64,000 nt of DNA from a virus, in IMG/VR virus record IMGVR_UViG_3300030390_002309, positions 32,001 through 96,000 of that record; one strand, given 5' to 3'. This document shows positions 6,193 to 39,503 of this stretch, in pieces. Under the pieces are notes generated by a model. The model was not told the DNA's origin and searched no databases. It worked only from the letters and a program-made list of their open reading frames with translations. A program made the translations under genes and the position numbers. Each line of letters starts with the position of its first letter. Within the stretch, counting starts at the first letter, position 1.

Positions 6193-6612
6193 TTAATATG
6201 ACCTAGGTCCTTGCGTCGGAAATATAAAATCATTTCTTTTTTCAATTTGCTGAACTGATACATTTGGTGATACATTTTCTCCATCAAACCATAATTCAAT
6301 ATTCTCAGCATAATTTGCTCTCGTATGGCCTACACCATCCTTTGCAAATAATTTAGTAGGTTCAACATCTCCAACTTCTGCTGCCCCATTCCATATACTT
6401 GTTAGATTAGAATCAATTAACGCATATGATTCAGAAAACTTATTCTTAGCTTTATCTACTGATACTAATAAGAATCCTTGACCCTTTTCACTTCTTAAGT
6501 CATAGAATACCTTTGAGTCTACTGATCTAACATTTGTTATAACTCCTACTTGAGCAACTCCTTCTGTCTTAAAGACAACCTTATCATCTATTTCATATCT
6601 CACTTTACTCAT
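6193..6612 (-). CDS. Hypothetical protein with SH3/KOW-like N-terminus
   Basis: YEIDDKVVF...GVITNV...YDL beta pattern. Confidence 0.6.
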   Translation of the reverse strand: MSKVRYEIDDKVVFKTEGVAQVGVITNVRSVDSKVFYDLRSEKGQGFLLVSVDKAKNKFSESYALIDSNLTSIWNGAAEVGDVEPTKLFAKDGVGHTRANYAENIELWFDGENVSPNVSVQQIEKRNDFIFPTQGPRSY

Positions 6613-6613
6613 C

Positions 6614-6826
6614 TTAAACGTTTTTAGAATTATTAATTACTTTACAGATTTGAGATGAACTAACTGACTTAACTTCAAATTCAACTCCGTCATTTTTAAA
6701 ATCTTCAACTACTAATGCTTCTGCATGAGTAACTGATACTGCATTAACTAAATACGTCTCCGTTTGCCATTTAACTCCCTTAGGTGTATCGGTTGCAATC
6801 TTTACCTTACTTACATAATAACTCAT
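6614..6826 (-). CDS. DUF4494-like protein (Bacteroidota-type)
   Basis: ETYLVNAVSVTHAEA motif. Confidence 0.7.
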   Translation of the reverse strand: MSYYVSKVKIATDTPKGVKWQTETYLVNAVSVTHAEALVVEDFKNDGVEFEVKSVSSSQICKVINNSKNV

Positions 6827-6854
6827 AATTTTTATTTTTTTAATTTATATTAAT

Positions 6855-6886
6855 TTAATATAAGGACTTTTTTTCAAAGATCCTAA
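6855..6886 (-). promoter_or_regulatory. sigmaA-type promoter (TTAG-N20-TATATTAA)
   Basis: Repeat family member. Confidence 0.6.
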
Positions 6887-6902
6887 TTTTTTTACAACTT
6901 TT

Positions 6903-7208
6903 TTAAATAGATTCATTATACATTGCATTATCCAATTCTGCCGAACATTCTATATTTGGAGTATTGGTTGCAAAATATATAAACTTATCTCTACCATATT
7001 TAATAGCATTTGAAGGCCATTCTATTCTATCAATTAAGCCTTTCTTAACACCTCTTCGTAACATGGTTGCATATTTATGATTGGCTTGCAATTTATTGTT
7101 ATTTCGGTCATAACCAAATGCTGCTTTATTAATTTCATTTTCGGTCATAGGTCCTATTCTTTTTAAGACATCTACCATTTCATGAACTGAGTTTCTCTCT
7201 TTTGTCAT
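6903..7208 (-). CDS. Hypothetical protein, possible winged-helix DNA-binding fold
   Basis: GPMTENEI...LRRGVKKGLIDR pattern. Confidence 0.55.
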   Translation of the reverse strand: MTKERNSVHEMVDVLKRIGPMTENEINKAAFGYDRNNNKLQANHKYATMLRRGVKKGLIDRIEWPSNAIKYGRDKFIYFATNTPNIECSAELDNAMYNESI

Positions 7209-7267
7209 TTTTTATTTATTAATTTTAGATCAATTTAAGGCTTGATCTTTAACCTTTTTATTATATA

Positions 7268-7299
7268 TAAAGATAAGGAATATATTTCATATAACCTAA
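7268..7299 (-). promoter_or_regulatory. Early promoter (TTAG-N20-TATCTTTA)
   Basis: Repeat family member. Confidence 0.7.
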
Positions 7300-7319
7300 T
7301 CTTTTTGAAGCTTTTTTAA

Positions 7320-7727
7320 TTATATTTGTTCACTATAATCATGCTTCTGCCAATCAAATCCTATCATCATTTTAGATGTTCTAGGAACAATATCTTCAAA
7401 GCATAAGTAACTATACTCTTCATGTAATTGCCAATTAGCACAATCATTTAATGCAATGATGCCTTGCTCTCTAACATCTATTAATTCATATCCATCACCA
7501 TAACCGAATCCTGTAATACATTCTACTAGTTTTCTAAGGTCCTTTTCTCCTTTATCCATTCCACCATTAGCAGCAAAGTTGCCTATAGCTCTTTGATAAG
7601 CGCCATATATCTTTTCTGCTACATTGATTCTCATCTCTTCAGCAATCTTATCATTATGTTTATACATTGCCGTTGAATGTGGCTTTGTAATTTCGATTCC
7701 GTACTTAATTTGGTTTTTCTTTTTCAT
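7320..7727 (-). CDS. Hypothetical early protein
   Basis: ORF with its own promoter. Confidence 0.7.
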   Translation of the reverse strand: MKKKNQIKYGIEITKPHSTAMYKHNDKIAEEMRINVAEKIYGAYQRAIGNFAANGGMDKGEKDLRKLVECITGFGYGDGYELIDVREQGIIALNDCANWQLHEEYSYLCFEDIVPRTSKMMIGFDWQKHDYSEQI

Positions 7728-7751
7728 ATCTATTACTTTTTTATTTATATA

Positions 7752-7783
7752 TAAAGATAAGAAATATATTTCAATTAGGCAAA
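7752..7783 (-). promoter_or_regulatory. Early promoter (TTTG-N20-TATCTTTA)
   Basis: Closest match to the Bacteroidota -33 TTTG / -7 TAnnTTTG consensus. Confidence 0.75.
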
Positions 7784-7815
7784 TCTTTTACCAAAAATGT
7801 TTAGAAAAAGTTAAC

Positions 7816-7844
7816 AAAAGGAAAGACGCATTAAGCGCCTTTCC
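7816..7844 (-). terminator. Intrinsic terminator
   Basis: GGAAAGGCGC-ttaat-GCGTCTTTCC followed by TTTTG, just after the 7859 gene. Confidence 0.75.
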
Positions 7845-7858
7845 AATTATATATAAAA

Positions 7859-8083
7859 CTACTTCTTTACAAAGAATGATGCAACGATCACTAATACAAC
7901 TAAACCTACAAACCCACCATTACCTAGTGAAGTTACAAGTGCTGATAAATTAGCAATTACATCCATTCCAAATACTGAACCACCTGTTAAGATAGTCCAA
8001 AGAATTGTTACCGGTAATACAGCCATCATGATAGTCATTAGACCACCAAAAAATCCTGTAATGTATTTAATAATACTTTCCAT
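7859..8083 (-). CDS. Small two-TM membrane protein
   Basis: Very hydrophobic; GAGG SD-like element. Confidence 0.75.
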   Translation of the reverse strand: MESIIKYITGFFGGLMTIMMAVLPVTILWTILTGGSVFGMDVIANLSALVTSLGNGGFVGLVVLVIVASFFVKK

Positions 8084-8113
8084 AATAATTTCCTCTTTTA
8101 TTTGTTGTTATTT

Positions 8114-8148
8114 GACACTATTGTCGAATCGGGGTGTTTAGAGAGATC
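8114..8148 (-). promoter_or_regulatory. Downstream arm of a putative long-range RNA structure plus GACA-ATAG-TGTC hairpin
   Basis: GATCTCTCTAA is complementary to 8622-8632; CACCC is complementary to the hairpin loop at 8643-8648. Confidence 0.5.
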
Positions 8149-8159
8149 GCTTATTTTTA

Positions 8160-8570
8160 TTAGAATTTAAGACCGAAACCTAACCCTAAGTTAGTTGTCT
8201 TATCTTCTGTATTATAAACGATTCTTGGATCTACAAACACATTCTTATGTATTGTAAACATCCTACCTACTCCGAGACTCAATGTCTCAGTATCAAATCC
8301 ATTTGCTGAAGCATATGCAAAATATCCTTTGTAGAAATATCTTGCATGAAGATCTATCTCCATATCAACAGTTGAATCCATTTGTGAAATTGCTAAACCT
8401 ATCATTAGGTTATCATTAATTCCATATCCTACAGTTGGACTAACTGCCCATTCTGTCCAGGATACGTTGCTTATATCACTAGCACCTACGTACCAGTCAC
8501 CTTTCGTTTGCGCGTCAGATGCAACAACTGTTGCAAATATTAACGCTATTGTTAAAATCAAATTTTTCAT
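8160..8570 (-). CDS. Small outer-membrane beta-barrel protein with signal peptide
   Basis: Sec signal, AQTKGDWYVG, alternating beta strands, C-terminal LGLGFGLKF BAM signal. Confidence 0.8.
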   Translation of the reverse strand: MKNLILTIALIFATVVASDAQTKGDWYVGASDISNVSWTEWAVSPTVGYGINDNLMIGLAISQMDSTVDMEIDLHARYFYKGYFAYASANGFDTETLSLGVGRMFTIHKNVFVDPRIVYNTEDKTTNLGLGFGLKF

Positions 8571-8597
8571 AATTATTTTTCTCCTTTATTATATTGT

Positions 8598-8656
8598 GCC
8601 ACTATTGGCTTTTACCTTAAGGATCTCTCTAATTATACGCTACACCCATAGCGTAT
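8598..8656 (-). promoter_or_regulatory. Structured 5' leader of the OMP gene
   Basis: ATACGCTA-tgggtg-TAGCGTAT hairpin, TTAGAGAGATC arm, GCCA-ATAG-TGGC hairpin upstream of AAGGAG. Confidence 0.5.
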
Positions 8657-8686
8657 TTCTTAATACCTTTTTACTTATTATTATTA

Positions 8687-8718
8687 TTAATATATAAAAA
8701 CTATTTCGTAAAACCTAA
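8687..8718 (-). promoter_or_regulatory. sigmaA-type promoter (TTAG-N20-TATATTAA)
   Basis: Repeat family member ~115 nt upstream of the OMP start. Confidence 0.55.
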
Positions 8719-8725
8719 TAAAACT

Positions 8726-9124
8726 TTAAAATTGTTTTGGTATTGGCTGACTTCTTCTGCCGCCCTTTTCTCGTAAACCTTCTAATTGCTGTGCAATCTC
8801 TATTTCTGCTTTGATTTGAAGCATAAGGACTCCCTTATCTTCAAACACTCCTTCGAGTGACTTATATTTGTTGTAACTATTAGTATCACCTGCAGACGCA
8901 TCTTGTGCCGTCTTAAGTGCTCCTTCTATTCTTGTTGCTATTTCTGTTCTTAATGATGACCTATTCATTGTCCCAAATCCAACGATATGAATCTCTGGAT
9001 CTATTGGGTCAAAGTCTTCTGCATCAAGCAGTCCACCATATTTGTAAGTTCTTTCGTTAAGTACCGAATCAACTTCTTCCCTAACTAAACCTCTTATTCT
9101 ATTTGCTAAATCTTGTTTGTCCAT
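8726..9124 (-). CDS. Hypothetical protein, putative virion/head cargo (IRGLVREEVDSVLNE)
   Basis: N-terminal E-rich motif shared with other late proteins. Confidence 0.65.
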   Translation of the reverse strand: MDKQDLANRIRGLVREEVDSVLNERTYKYGGLLDAEDFDPIDPEIHIVGFGTMNRSSLRTEIATRIEGALKTAQDASAGDTNSYNKYKSLEGVFEDKGVLMLQIKAEIEIAQQLEGLREKGGRRSQPIPKQF

Positions 9125-9337
9125 TTAATTCCAAAATATTAATTTAGCAAGGACGCCTATCATCGCTACCCATACCGACCATAGGGCGCCATTTGCTTTT
9201 TTTCTAAATTCTGTATTGCGATTAACTCTAGATATAGTTCCATCATCTGGATCTAATAATCTAATTTTTATCTCTCTTACATCAGCTTTAAGTTCTACAA
9301 GCTCTTCATGTAATTGTTCATTTGTTAATCGTGCCAT
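9125..9337 (-). CDS. Small coiled-coil protein with C-terminal TM
   Basis: Heptad pattern followed by a hydrophobic tail. Confidence 0.65.
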   Translation of the reverse strand: MARLTNEQLHEELVELKADVREIKIRLLDPDDGTISRVNRNTEFRKKANGALWSVWVAMIGVLAKLIFWN

Positions 9338-9346
9338 AATACAGTT

Positions 9347-9532
9347 TTAAGATCTTTTTGATTCTGTAACAGATGCCTTTCTATATTCTGTTACTAGTTT
9401 TTTTAATTCACCAACTGCCTTCCTTGCTCTTGTTGCAGCTGCTTTATTTCCCTTCTCTAAAAACTTTGAATGGTTCTCACTAAACTCTGTCCAAAATCCT
9501 TCCATCTTTGTATATAACTCTTCTGATGCCAT
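9347..9532 (-). CDS. Histone H1-like/Hc1 family small DNA-binding protein
   Basis: EKGNKAAATRARKAVGELKKLVTEYRKAS signature. Confidence 0.85.
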   Translation of the reverse strand: MASEELYTKMEGFWTEFSENHSKFLEKGNKAAATRARKAVGELKKLVTEYRKASVTESKRS

Positions 9533-9567
9533 AATAACTCTCCTTTTGTTAATTTAATATAAATATG

Positions 9568-9792
9568 CTACTCTTGATTAAAATCAGAAAAAATATCCTC
9601 GGCTTGTTTTGAAACTTTAAAGTCTAATTTCAACGCATGTTCTAATTGGTGGTCATTCATTACATCTAGTGCTTGAAATACTAAATCTCCATCTAGATAG
9701 ACCTCACCAATTAGGGTTTCATCGTCGACAAAAAACTCTAGTTCTTCGCCTTCAAATACTTCGCCGGTGGATATGTTTTCTATTGTAATCAT
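9568..9792 (-). CDS. Acidic hypothetical protein
   Basis: ORF after ATATTTAT motif. Confidence 0.65.
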   Translation of the reverse strand: MITIENISTGEVFEGEELEFFVDDETLIGEVYLDGDLVFQALDVMNDHQLEHALKLDFKVSKQAEDIFSDFNQE

Positions 9793-9829
9793 TTATAATA
9801 AATATGCTATTACACCGGTTTTAAACCTA

Positions 9830-10021
9830 TTACGCCTTAGAAGCAGCGGCTATTATACAACTAATTCCTGATATAGAAATTAAACCAAAGAATGCCATTT
9901 CATTTAATGGTCCTGCAAAGTTAATATAATCTAAAATTGCTCCGGTTCCGGTCATATATGCTAATTTTAAACAAACATAACCTCCGATAATTAACGATAA
10001 ATTTGTGATGAACTTTTTCAT
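9830..10021 (-). CDS. Small two-TM early protein
   Basis: Hydrophobic ORF with its own promoter. Confidence 0.65.
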   Translation of the reverse strand: MKKFITNLSLIIGGYVCLKLAYMTGTGAILDYINFAGPLNEMAFFGLISISGISCIIAAASKA

Positions 10022-10045
10022 ATTTTTTACTTTTTATTTATATAA

Positions 10046-10077
10046 TAAAGATAAGAAATATATTTCAATTAGGCAAA
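10046..10077 (-). promoter_or_regulatory. Early promoter (TTTG-N20-TATCTTTA)
   Basis: Identical core to 7752-7783. Confidence 0.75.
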
Positions 10078-10269
10078 TTATTTTGAAGCTTTTTTCCTAT
10101 ATATATCAGTTATTTTAGTATGGGCATATGACCATCTTTCTTTAACTTCTTTATATTGATGATGAGGCTGTGTTCTCATTTTTTGCAATTGTTCATCAAA
10201 TTCTTTTTTCATGTCCATTGAATCAATTGATTCAGTTATCTCGTACCAAAAATCTTCATAATGCCCCAT
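10078..10269 (-). CDS. Hypothetical protein
   Basis: AGGAG SD and ATATTTAT upstream. Confidence 0.7.
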   Translation of the reverse strand: MGHYEDFWYEITESIDSMDMKKEFDEQLQKMRTQPHHQYKEVKERWSYAHTKITDIYRKKASK

Positions 10270-10307
10270 AACGTAACTCCTATATTAATTTGTTAAAACT
10301 ATAAATA

Positions 10308-10634
10308 TTACTTACTTATTGTTCCTTTTATAAATTTCTTCTGTTTTTCTATGGCTTCATTAAGCTCGGTTTTATCCGTAGTGTGCTTTCTGGTAATCTT
10401 ATCTTCTGTTAACTTTCCAACATCAGTACTACCTACATATGAATCAATAAACCATACAGATTTCTTATCCATATCTTTCTTCCATTTAACAGATGGCAAA
10501 ATAGTACCGGATTGTACACACTTTAATTTGTAAGTTATCTTGTCTAGAACTTCAATTACAGAATATAATGAAGTGGTTGATAGGAAAGATGCAATTACTG
10601 TATCTCCTATATTTAGTTTTTTCTTTCTGCCCAT
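10308..10634 (-). CDS. Hypothetical early protein (KOW-like N-terminus)
   Basis: LNIGDTV; own promoter. Confidence 0.65.
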   Translation of the reverse strand: MGRKKKLNIGDTVIASFLSTTSLYSVIEVLDKITYKLKCVQSGTILPSVKWKKDMDKKSVWFIDSYVGSTDVGKLTEDKITRKHTTDKTELNEAIEKQKKFIKGTISK

Positions 10635-10654
10635 ATCTTTGTTTTATTTATATA

Positions 10655-10686
10655 TAAAGATAAAAAATATATTTCAATTAGGCAAA
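10655..10686 (-). promoter_or_regulatory. Early promoter (TTTG-N20-TATCTTTA)
   Basis: Repeat family member. Confidence 0.75.
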
Positions 10687-31072: not shown

Positions 31073-32134
31073 CTAAAATATTATATAGTTAACGCCTACA
31101 CTAAAATCGTGCCAATTACGATTCCAGTACTTATTATATTTCCCTTCTAAAAATATACCTAAACTTTTATTAAACTTATGTCCAAATATTAAACCACCAC
31201 TATAATCAAACCACTGACCGCCATTGTATTTATGGTATGAGAACTGGCTATTGTCATTATAATGAAATGGTAATAAATTACCCCATGAATGTAACCAAAA
31301 TGTTTTTGTATAATGATAAAAGTCAAATCCAATTACTAATGAATGTTGCAAAGTATTATCTTGACCATCTCTTTTTCTTTCCGTGTAATCTGCTAACATT
31401 TTAGGTATGACTACACCTTCCCAAATTTCCGAACTTGTTGCAACTGAATTACCTGATGGGTCTAAATATTCAACTCCACCCTGTCCATCAAATTCTACAC
31501 TATATCCTTCTTGTATAGCTAAGAATGTATAATGTAAGTTGCCATTATCTAATAACCATTCTTCTAATGGATTATATCCATATGGTTCTGATAATCTCTG
31601 TGCTGCTCCTATATTAAAAGATAACTTACTGCCTACATTATATCTATATCTCTCTGATGCCTCAAAGTATCTAATATCAGCAAACCCATCTTCTAAATAT
31701 TCTACCTTTGCAATCCAATCATCAGCAACATATCTTAAAAAATGATGTTGATTTAAAAAAGATTGTCCTTGTTGTCGTTTCCAATCAACTTCAAATAGAA
31801 ATTCAAATCCTTTAACCTTTCCAATAGTTGCTGCATCTGAATATGAATTTTCTGTACCATCATAAAATACATCTGCTCTATTTTCATATCCTAGTCTAGC
31901 TATCTTCCTTAAACCTAATGTCATTGAATAATCAAATGGAGTTTCAATTGTTGTTGTAGTTAATCCATTTGTAACACTATATACATCTAAATCTGATACT
32001 GAATTACCTCCATTTATTGCTCCATAAAATGTTGCAAATTTGAATGTCTTTTTAAGATCAATCTGACCACAGCATTTCTTTGGAGCTGCACATCCAACTA
32101 AAACAACTAATAATAAAACTAATATTTTTTTCAT
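31073..32134 (-). CDS. Putative outer-membrane beta-barrel protein
   Basis: Signal peptide, aromatic-rich alternating strands, C-terminal FSVGVNYIIF. Confidence 0.7.
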   Translation of the reverse strand: MKKILVLLLVVLVGCAAPKKCCGQIDLKKTFKFATFYGAINGGNSVSDLDVYSVTNGLTTTTIETPFDYSMTLGLRKIARLGYENRADVFYDGTENSYSDAATIGKVKGFEFLFEVDWKRQQGQSFLNQHHFLRYVADDWIAKVEYLEDGFADIRYFEASERYRYNVGSKLSFNIGAAQRLSEPYGYNPLEEWLLDNGNLHYTFLAIQEGYSVEFDGQGGVEYLDPSGNSVATSSEIWEGVVIPKMLADYTERKRDGQDNTLQHSLVIGFDFYHYTKTFWLHSWGNLLPFHYNDNSQFSYHKYNGGQWFDYSGGLIFGHKFNKSLGIFLEGKYNKYWNRNWHDFSVGVNYIIF

Positions 32135-39457: not shown

Positions 39458-39471
39458 TTTTTAATTATATA

Positions 39472-39503
39472 TAAAAATAAGAAATTTATTTCAATTAGGC
39501 AAA
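39472..39503 (-). promoter_or_regulatory. Early promoter (TTTG-N20-TATTTTTA)
   Basis: Repeat family member. Confidence 0.7.

Follow-up and report, generated by a model that had tools for sequence, protein, structure and literature searches.

The messenger of a small outer-membrane-protein (OMP) gene in an uncultured marine phage is bracketed by a long-range RNA helix, named here P2, which pairs the 5′ leader with the spacer behind the stop codon and loops out the entire 411-nt open reading frame (ORF). P2 is a selected sense-strand RNA structure that goes beyond chance. The stretch analysed (the window) comprises 64,000 nt, positions 32,001 to 96,000 of the IMG/VR virus record IMGVR_UViG_3300030390_002309, and is part of a 129.6-kb record with a G+C content of 31.6%, in which nearly every gene lies on the minus strand. 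All coordinates are window positions, and the mRNA corresponds to the minus strand. The OMP gene and a gene for a predicted two-pass membrane protein form a two-gene unit on this strand, bounded by a promoter-like site and a strong terminator (7844-7820).

The positions of the elements are collected in Table 1. A sequence-only reading of this region had proposed a leader hairpin, a perfect 11-nt helix around the OMP gene, a CACCC segment complementary to the hairpin loop, and two related small hairpins before the two cistrons. The leader hairpin (P1) was present where it had been placed on the minus strand, as were CACCC (8136-8132), both Shine-Dalgarno sequences with their ATG codons, and the operon-closing terminator with its T run. 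P1 may alternatively be drawn with 9 bp and a 4-nt loop if the U.G closing pair is included. The 11-nt cores of the two arms proved perfectly complementary, and the helix is longer than had been described; CTTA of the 5′ arm pairs with TAAG of the 3′ arm, so that the helix comprises 15 bp and a single bulge. Upstream of the OMP start codon, the 5′ arm reaches to within 48 nt, and the 3′ arm begins 7 nt past the stop codon, within a 76-nt intercistronic spacer, with the terminator about 300 nt further on. The small hairpins, Sh1 and Sh2, have a common loop and stems that differ at one compensated pair, as the earlier reading held. Both start regions are built alike: an arm is followed by 5-8 nt, a small hairpin, and an A-rich spacer of about 27-30 nt with the Shine-Dalgarno sequence.

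The pairing was compared with chance and with the rest of the genome. The leader/downstream duplex has an energy of -31.7 kcal/mol versus -15.7 ± 3.2 kcal/mol for shuffled downstream sequences (z = -5.0), and none of 200 shuffles reached this value. Perfect helices of at least 11 bp were found in 0.23% of 5272 non-cognate leader/trailer pairs of relatives and in 19 of 3000 non-cognate pairs inside this genome, the latter mostly A+T-only. The 11-mer of the arm has just two exact copies in the window, both of them the arms, and the small-hairpin motif occurs twice in the entire 129.6-kb record, both times at this operon. This ruled out a dispersed repeat and a general promoter or operator. When 161 minus-strand ORFs of the record were scanned, the distribution of cognate brackets overall equalled the non-cognate one, and only the OMP gene had a long G+C-containing bracket. 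The element is therefore gene-specific and not general punctuation; bracketing of ORFs throughout the genome, as in T7, was rejected by the same scan. The comparison with Rfam that had been suggested revealed no family matching the elements: cmscan of 6500-10500 to E = 10 gave five chance-level matches, none on the elements, a split element with a 410-nt insert being hard for any covariance model.

Three collection scans for relatives, in which the OMP protein or an alignment of it served as the query, yielded 209 loci (designated L with a number). A complete ORF and enough flanking sequence were available for 131 of them, corresponding to 84 distinct leader/trailer pairs. The earlier reading had named the lack of complementarity or covariation in homologous operons as the result that would speak against it; matched arm pairs were found in 78 of the 84. 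The arms fall into at least eight unrelated sequence types, with 37, 8, 4, 3, 16, 4, 5 and 2 loci; L110, in which the arms are unmatched, is counted among the 37 of the main type. In a leader-type by trailer-type matrix of duplex energies, the cognate cell was the strongest for seven of the eight types. The eighth, the GAGAGCATT type, forms a perfect helix of 8-10 bp (9-10 bp in 14 of 16 loci), and helices of at least 9 bp and at least 10 bp were present in 2.05% and 0.5% of the 5272 non-cognate pairs, respectively. Total duplex energy fails as a test for this type, its cognate value being equal to background; the type is supported by contiguous helix length and by the partition function.

Helix length varies over the types from 7 to 19 bp, and it is limited to 7-11 bp, with nothing to stack on, in the GCGCGC, GAGAGCATT and ATGAAGAGC types. 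In several types the arms are palindromes rich in G+C. In every type the 5′ arm stops 31-51 nt short of the ATG, the core of the 3′ arm starts 11-20 nt past the stop codon, and the arms never overlap the Shine-Dalgarno sequence or the start codon in any of the eight. In seven of the eight types, the 3′ arm has at least one small hairpin at a distance of 0-5 nt; none is present in the L208/L209 type. The two-pass gene is always the next gene after the OMP gene, and the orientation of the element is identical in all 84 distinct loci, with none inverted. In the first set of relatives, the cognate duplex had z values of -2.4 to -5.3 in 20 of 34 loci and near 0 in the other 14, which belong mostly to a 164-kb phage group without Shine-Dalgarno sequences.

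For the main arm type, 37 distinct loci were aligned, and pairs were counted for a specified structure. We observed that 94.5% of the cells are paired, versus 25-49% with slid partners. Changes on both sides were found at 12 pairs versus 4.2 ± 1.2 after shuffling, and none of 500 shuffles reached 12. One pair of the P2 core is C-G in 25 loci, A-U in 9 and U.G in 2, and the A-U state marks a single clade (support 100) that contains this window. Two core positions toggle between A and G opposite an invariant U, with 5 and 12 G.U cells and with at least three and at least six changes, respectively, on a tree built from the ORF only. The one-sided core transitions inferred, at least ten, all produce G.U when read on the sense strand and never A.C; ten sites could give A.C and none does, the chance of which is about 0.001 by our arithmetic. 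This bias indicates RNA of the sense strand; neither an antisense RNA nor a DNA repeat would be expected to show it. Other types contain additional wobble pairs (L016, L188, L165). P1 shows changes on both sides at five of its eight pairs across the 37 loci. The covariation that had been claimed for the small hairpins before both cistrons was seen at their second pair, which is CG in 28 loci, AU in 7 and UA in 1 for Sh1, and GC in 26 and AU in 11 with zero mismatch for Sh2, each side of the latter having changed at least three times on the ORF tree. The stems of the small hairpins contain 4 and 1 G.U cells. Their outer pairs covary, whereas conservation is seen at the C-A/U-G pairs and at the first two letters of the loop.

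The same structure was obtained by folding. RNAalifold predicted P1, the P2 core, Sh1 and Sh2 de novo from the alignment alone, and both the minimum free energy (MFE) structure and the centroid structure of the 865-nt transcript show P1, the extended P2, both small hairpins and the terminator. The long-range helix that had been proposed to loop out the ORF is thus kept in relatives and recovered by all three predictions. Both ribosome-binding sites are predicted to be open with or without the helix, and neither Shine-Dalgarno sequence is paired in the MFE or the centroid structure. In a partition function of the leader, the ORF and 60 nt, the arm-arm pairing probability was 0.50-1.00 in all 75 loci evaluated (L110, which has no 5′ arm, L165 and L166 were left out), and it was 0.89 in the full-length ensemble of this window. 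The fold of the transcript has z = -8.6 relative to shuffles, or -6.2 by a second estimate, and nine random segments of the same length from this genome gave -1.6 to +2.5. The OMP ORF RNA alone has z = -5.5; relative to dinucleotide shuffles, this ORF and its homologues, among them those of L008, L019 and L195, gave values of -3.0 to -6.8 in 12 loci with the helix. Such structure within a coding sequence is unusual.

Beyond a 1-nt linker, the 3′ arm is followed by 5-6 nt with which the loop of P1 can pair; this contact is named P3. The earlier reading had described it as loop-loop pairing. The complementarity held, but the partner of the hairpin loop is a single strand. Of the main-type loci, 36 have a 5′ arm; 32 of these contain the loop together with the CACC tail and 4 contain neither, with no discordant locus; L212, described below, likewise lacks both. 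Where P3 is missing, P2 is longer instead, at 12-13 bp. The loci that lack P3 cluster in one part of the tree, so the number of independent P3 events is small. The tail reads CACCCC or CACCTA, which gives a G-C or a G.U pair, and L113 has the loop TAGGTG with the tail CACCTA, which converts G.U to A-U, the sole change of this kind. On this sequence evidence, P3 pairing, and hence an H-type pseudoknot with the P2-closed cistron as its long loop, is plausible but not established. In L019 and L024 (2873-2905), a third copy of the small hairpin lies directly past the stop codon of an upstream 259-aa ORF, with CACC before it and CAAAAC after it, and the P1 loop has a possible partner on both sides there.

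Transcription of the operon was followed in ocean metatranscriptomes. Thirteen runs recorded as metatranscriptomes each contained at least half of the sampled words of the region. Of their 13 study codes, 12 date from a single year and share a library description, so the runs may come from one campaign. Four runs were compared with 7000-9500 by their contigs only, which cannot show RNA ends. The contigs cover the operon (about 7840-8740) and parts of 8932-9500, not 8764-8931, and none lies at 7000-7671 in any of the four runs. Carried-over genomic DNA would be expected to leave a different pattern, and the observed one agrees with the predicted promoter and terminator. The 3′ arm is bridged by contigs in three of the four runs, and the fourth covers it with just 29 nt on one side. 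One contig of run X5 covers 7905-8731, passing through the 5′ arm and joining the leader, the ORF and the spacer. Uncut RNA is therefore common. From the promoter-like site, the transcript would start near 8675. A perfect TATAAT (8637-8632, minus strand) lies across the junction of P1 and P2; used as a -10 box, it would place the transcription start inside the 5′ arm, and the transcript would not contain the helix. It cannot be the sole start, because contigs from the RNA libraries extend upstream of it. Runs X8 and X10 each contain one high-depth contig that matches on both sides of 8239-8473 with 236 differing letters between; the differing stretch is probably a divergent OMP allele of a co-occurring relative. 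A splice joining 8239 to 8473 was rejected.

As to function, we tentatively favour, at less than even confidence, a closure helix that is compatible with translation and controls nuclease access to the OMP cistron and its stability or processing, a reading that rests on geometry and analogy. P2 would keep the OMP cistron as a closed, self-contained folding domain; closure would limit the access of endonucleases to the leader and the intercistronic spacer, and this restricted access would set the stability or processing of a strongly structured mRNA. The 14-bp pairing of the two untranslated regions of Bacillus subtilis hbs mRNA acts in such a manner. The helix could persist during translation, because its arms lie just outside the footprints of initiating and terminating ribosomes, taken at their usual sizes. 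Occlusion of the ribosome-binding site, the mode of icaR, is excluded, because the arms never touch the Shine-Dalgarno sequence or the start codon and these sites are predicted to be open. The strong fold of the transcript gives the closure helix indirect support.

Several observations weigh against this reading. No helix is present in the 164-kb phage group or in five of the 84 loci (L045, L120, L180, L185 and L204); the gene does without it in these lineages, so the helix is not essential. The OMP ORF is structured without a helix as well (z of -1.7 to -4.4 in seven loci), and the strong overall fold is for this reason not tied to closure. L110 has the 3′ arm with a foreign leader, so that its arms are unmatched. 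A C.A pair stands at the helix end in three of the five loci of one type, L206 has an internal G-A mismatch, and pairing probabilities are lower (0.50-0.65) in L117, L201 and L211. Closure also leaves unexplained the binding partner that is suggested by the conservation of loop letters in the small hairpins. In three of the four runs, contigs end at 8629, 8638 and 8639, at the P1/P2 junction and with no loose ends. These ends are a weak hint of a 5′ end or of nuclease cleavage, by RNase III or another enzyme, and could also reflect poor coverage of a start near 8675.

The sequence-only reading had left the function between an RNase III processing or stabilising stem, a translational coupling switch, and a pair of protein-binding operators. 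None of these is proven; RNase III processing and DNA operators are disfavoured by the evidence below, and a switch acting by occlusion of the ribosome-binding site is the one excluded above. If P2, P3 and P2b stacked, they would form about two helical turns (about 21 bp with a bulge in this window), at which RNase III could excise the OMP cistron and leave pieces of different stability. Stems that bracket ORFs or rRNAs and are cut by RNase III are known, and the contig ends at 8629-8639 lie at or next to the 5′ arm in three of the four runs. The 5′/3′ duplex of icaR is, in the published description, an RNase III substrate (PMC3868564). However, several arm types have 7-11 bp and no stacking partner, which is too short for a classic site, and uncut contigs bridge the 3′ arm in three of the four runs, one of them continuing through the 5′ arm to 8731. 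Moreover, no RNase III gene was found in the phage record, which is about 73% complete, and the bracket is not genome-wide punctuation as in T7. We consider RNase III processing unlikely. A device linked to translation, in which the helix passes terminating ribosomes or their subunits to the OMP start or to the second cistron and so fixes the ratio of the products, agrees with the placement of the arms just outside the ribosome footprints in all eight types, the common layout of both start regions and the invariant gene pair. It would have to work with ribosome-binding sites that are predicted to be open whether or not the helix forms, and helix-less relatives in which the second gene follows have a spacer of 26-30 nt with no helix at all. 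Our literature searches found no bacterial precedent for such a device, and to our knowledge none is known for a ribosome-passing closure helix. This possibility, too, appears unlikely.

The small hairpins (stem NNCA/UGNN, loop AUNN) might instead be bound by an RNA-binding protein of the phage or the host, with P2 setting the geometry of a regulatory scaffold that includes P1 and would control both cistrons jointly. The conservation of the C-A/U-G pairs and of the initial two loop letters beside covarying outer pairs speaks for this, as do the close spacing to the 3′ arm in seven of eight types, the third copy in L019 and L024, and the absence of the motif elsewhere in this genome. On the other hand, no candidate protein was identified, the L208/L209 type shows no small hairpin, and 4-bp stems are weak; a palindromic DNA site would covary too, although the 4 and 1 G.U cells favour RNA. 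We regard a scaffold of this kind as improbable. Action at the level of DNA, with the arms as the ends of a mobile or invertible cassette or as paired operators for a DNA-looping protein, is very improbable. The arms are indeed inverted repeats that flank a self-contained promoter-to-terminator unit, several types are G+C-rich palindromes, and a recombinant with unmatched arms (L110) exists. Against this, the one-sided core transitions, at least ten, are all G.U on the sense strand and none is A.C, none of the 84 distinct loci has the opposite orientation, and no recombinase was seen beside the operon; arms of 7-15 bp are also shorter than typical recombinase sites. A further reading extends the closure helix to a prokaryotic closed-loop mRNA, in which a pseudoknot around a translated cistron would serve ribosome return or hand-over and act as a portable RNA insulator, freeing the expression of a moron-like cassette from the influence of its genomic surroundings. 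It draws on the fixed placement of the arms with respect to the start and stop codons over the eight types and on the differing contexts of the cassette; we hold it to be improbable as well.

The closure helix was also compared with known systems. The stems of rRNA operons and the intergenic sites of T7 that are cut by RNase III extend over roughly two or more helical turns and serve as punctuation at many genes. They resemble the present element in that complementary segments on both sides loop out a functional unit, whereas here several types have 7-11 bp and the bracket stands at one gene of the 161 ORFs. In the rpmI-rplT (L35/L20) pseudoknot operator and in the long-distance pairings of MS2, a hairpin loop or leader segment likewise pairs with a distant segment of its own mRNA. 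Those interactions, however, include or control a ribosome-binding site, the former being bound by L20 and those of the MS2 type being opened by translating ribosomes. The 5′-untranslated-region (5′-UTR) stabiliser of Escherichia coli ompA consists of a hairpin near the 5′ end and a second one just upstream of the ribosome-binding site. It is, as here, the leader of an OMP mRNA with two hairpins, but is purely local and has no downstream partner; no sequence similarity was seen, though none was tested for.

Two systems come closer. In the hbs mRNA of Bacillus subtilis, as described by Braun, Durand and Condon (2017; PMC5737220), a 14-nt pairing of the 5′ and 3′ UTRs shields an RNase Y site and sets stability, and was proven with engineered compensatory mutants. 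By that description, a short perfect complement brackets a small ORF after a leader hairpin and leaves the ribosome-binding site free, as here, and the helices are of similar length (14 bp in hbs; 7-19 bp over the present types and 15 bp in the window). The two differ in that the 3′ segment of hbs belongs to a genuine 3′ UTR and precedes the terminator, whereas the 3′ arm of the phage lies in an intercistronic spacer. The phage element adds the loop/tail pairing and the small hairpins, and its evidence is natural covariation alone, where that described for hbs came from engineered mutants. In Staphylococcus aureus icaR, according to the account of Ruiz de los Mozos et al. (2013; PMC3868564), a motif in the 3′ UTR covers the Shine-Dalgarno sequence, blocks initiation and forms a substrate of RNase III. 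As far as that account goes, the common feature is a region downstream of the ORF that pairs with its own leader, and the difference is that the arms of all eight types described here leave the Shine-Dalgarno sequence and start codon free.

Our literature searches found no description of the element. A 2023 catalogue of more than 10,000 viral candidate RNAs is, by its description, built by clustering single intergenic regions and could therefore hold at most the local hairpins, which may be listed there (PMC10690425). Long-range pairing of a leader with a trailer is a known kind of mechanism, and the element itself is apparently undescribed; it differs in its occurrence in a phage, the intercistronic position, the possible pseudoknot and an unusually rich natural covariation.

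Table 1. Positions of the RNA elements, genes and signals of the OMP operon, listed in the order of the transcript.
Feature	Position in window	Strand	Basis or remark
Promoter-like site (TTTACG, 18 nt, AATAAT)	8683..8712	-	Consensus scan; block conserved upstream in closest relatives
P1, 5′ leader hairpin (8-bp stem, loop TGGGTG)	8635..8656	-	Sequence, MFE/centroid, RNAalifold, covariation
P3 5′ strand (putative), the P1 loop	8643..8648	-	Complementary to 8136-8131
P2 5′ arm (11-nt core 8632-8622, CTTA 8621-8618)	8618..8632	-	Complementarity, folding
Sh1, small hairpin (4-bp stem, loop ATAG)	8598..8609	-	27 nt before OMP start codon
Shine-Dalgarno sequence of OMP gene (AAGGAG)	8581..8586	-	Untouched by helix; unpaired in MFE and centroid
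OMP ORF (136 aa, signal peptide, small outer-membrane beta-barrel)	8160..8570	-	ORF reading, PF13505, AlphaFold2, Foldseek
OMP stop codon	8162-8160	-	
P2 3′ arm (TAAG 8153-8150, bulged C8149, 11-nt core 8148-8138)	8138..8153	-	Complementarity, folding
P3 3′ strand (putative), CACCCC	8131..8136	-	1 nt after P2
Sh2, small hairpin (loop as Sh1)	8114..8125	-	30 nt before start codon of next gene
Second ORF (74 aa, predicted two-pass membrane protein)	7859..8083	-	GAGG at 8095-8092
Intrinsic terminator (10-bp stem, 6 G-C pairs, T run)	7812..7844	-	Scan and fold

The OMP protein scored 27.3 bits with PF13505 (OMP_b-brl), just below the gathering cut-off of 28.7. Its AlphaFold2 model has a mean pLDDT of 68 and 8-9 strands, and the best Foldseek matches of the model are 8-stranded membrane barrels (TM 0.54-0.59). 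The predicted fold agrees with a beta-barrel despite the PF13505 score. The two-pass membrane protein matched no Pfam or PHROG family. The OMP cassette was found in relatives both with its own promoter and behind another ORF, and general family scans of the neighbouring ORFs gave no recombinase family. A leader peptide was also considered, as an ATG in the P1 loop opens a 6-codon frame; it was rejected because neither its length nor its frame is conserved in relatives.

Some further observations concern the leaders and the recombinant locus. L110, a metagenome contig of 1118 nt, is nearly identical to L094 over the 3′ two-thirds of the OMP ORF and the spacer, and its leader and first ~170 alignment columns are of the L185 type, with the breakpoint in the signal-peptide region; it could be a natural recombinant or a chimeric assembly. 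The leaders of L093, L100, L125, L018 and their relatives, which represent three arm types, contain, on the upstream side of the 5′ arm and between about -110 and -50 relative to the OMP start, 2-3 direct repeats of AAGGTTAT-like words. In this genome the word is strand-biased (12 sense and 2 antisense copies), and it may be a protein-binding site or a promoter element.

No close cultured relative of the phage was found: blastn of the operon and tblastn of the OMP protein against 50,697 phage records gave no match, and PHROG scans of ten large ORFs yielded little. The ligase encoded in the window is about 31% identical to ligases of Bacillus and Clostridioides phages. Among 185,579 species genomes, the single match was L212, a contig of a metagenome-assembled genome labelled Candidatus Nitrosopelagicus, which carries the same operon and helix type. 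L212 looks like a phage contig binned with the wrong genome, because the archaeon has no outer membrane, and it gives no clue to the host. Outside the operon, a 28-nt A+T-rich block is present four times with 0-2 mismatches on the minus strand (7751-7778, 10045-10072, 10654-10681 and 39471-39498), where chance would give zero copies, and an ORF starts shortly downstream of at least the first two. The block is followed by a TATAAATA-like box, which we take to resemble the late promoters of T4; the block is probably a phage promoter class unlike that ahead of the OMP operon. An ORF of 61 aa (9347-9532, minus strand) matches the histone H1-like protein Hc1 family (PF07432, E = 4e-18) and is covered by RNA-library contigs in three of the four runs; a phage-encoded Hc1-like DNA-compacting protein is unusual.

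End-to-end pairing of bacterial coding units has been described in a few single-gene studies, such as those of hbs and icaR, without deep comparative support, and pipelines for structured RNA that scan one intergenic region at a time miss it. Here nature supplies the compensatory experiment: one architecture is realised with at least eight unrelated arm sequences in abundant, transcriptionally active marine phages. Searches for ORF-bracketing complementarity across phage genomes would thus be worthwhile. Should the closure helix prove to tune the survival of the mRNA or the traffic of ribosomes, it would offer a test case for long-range folding alongside translation and would represent a compact, portable rule for insulating gene expression.

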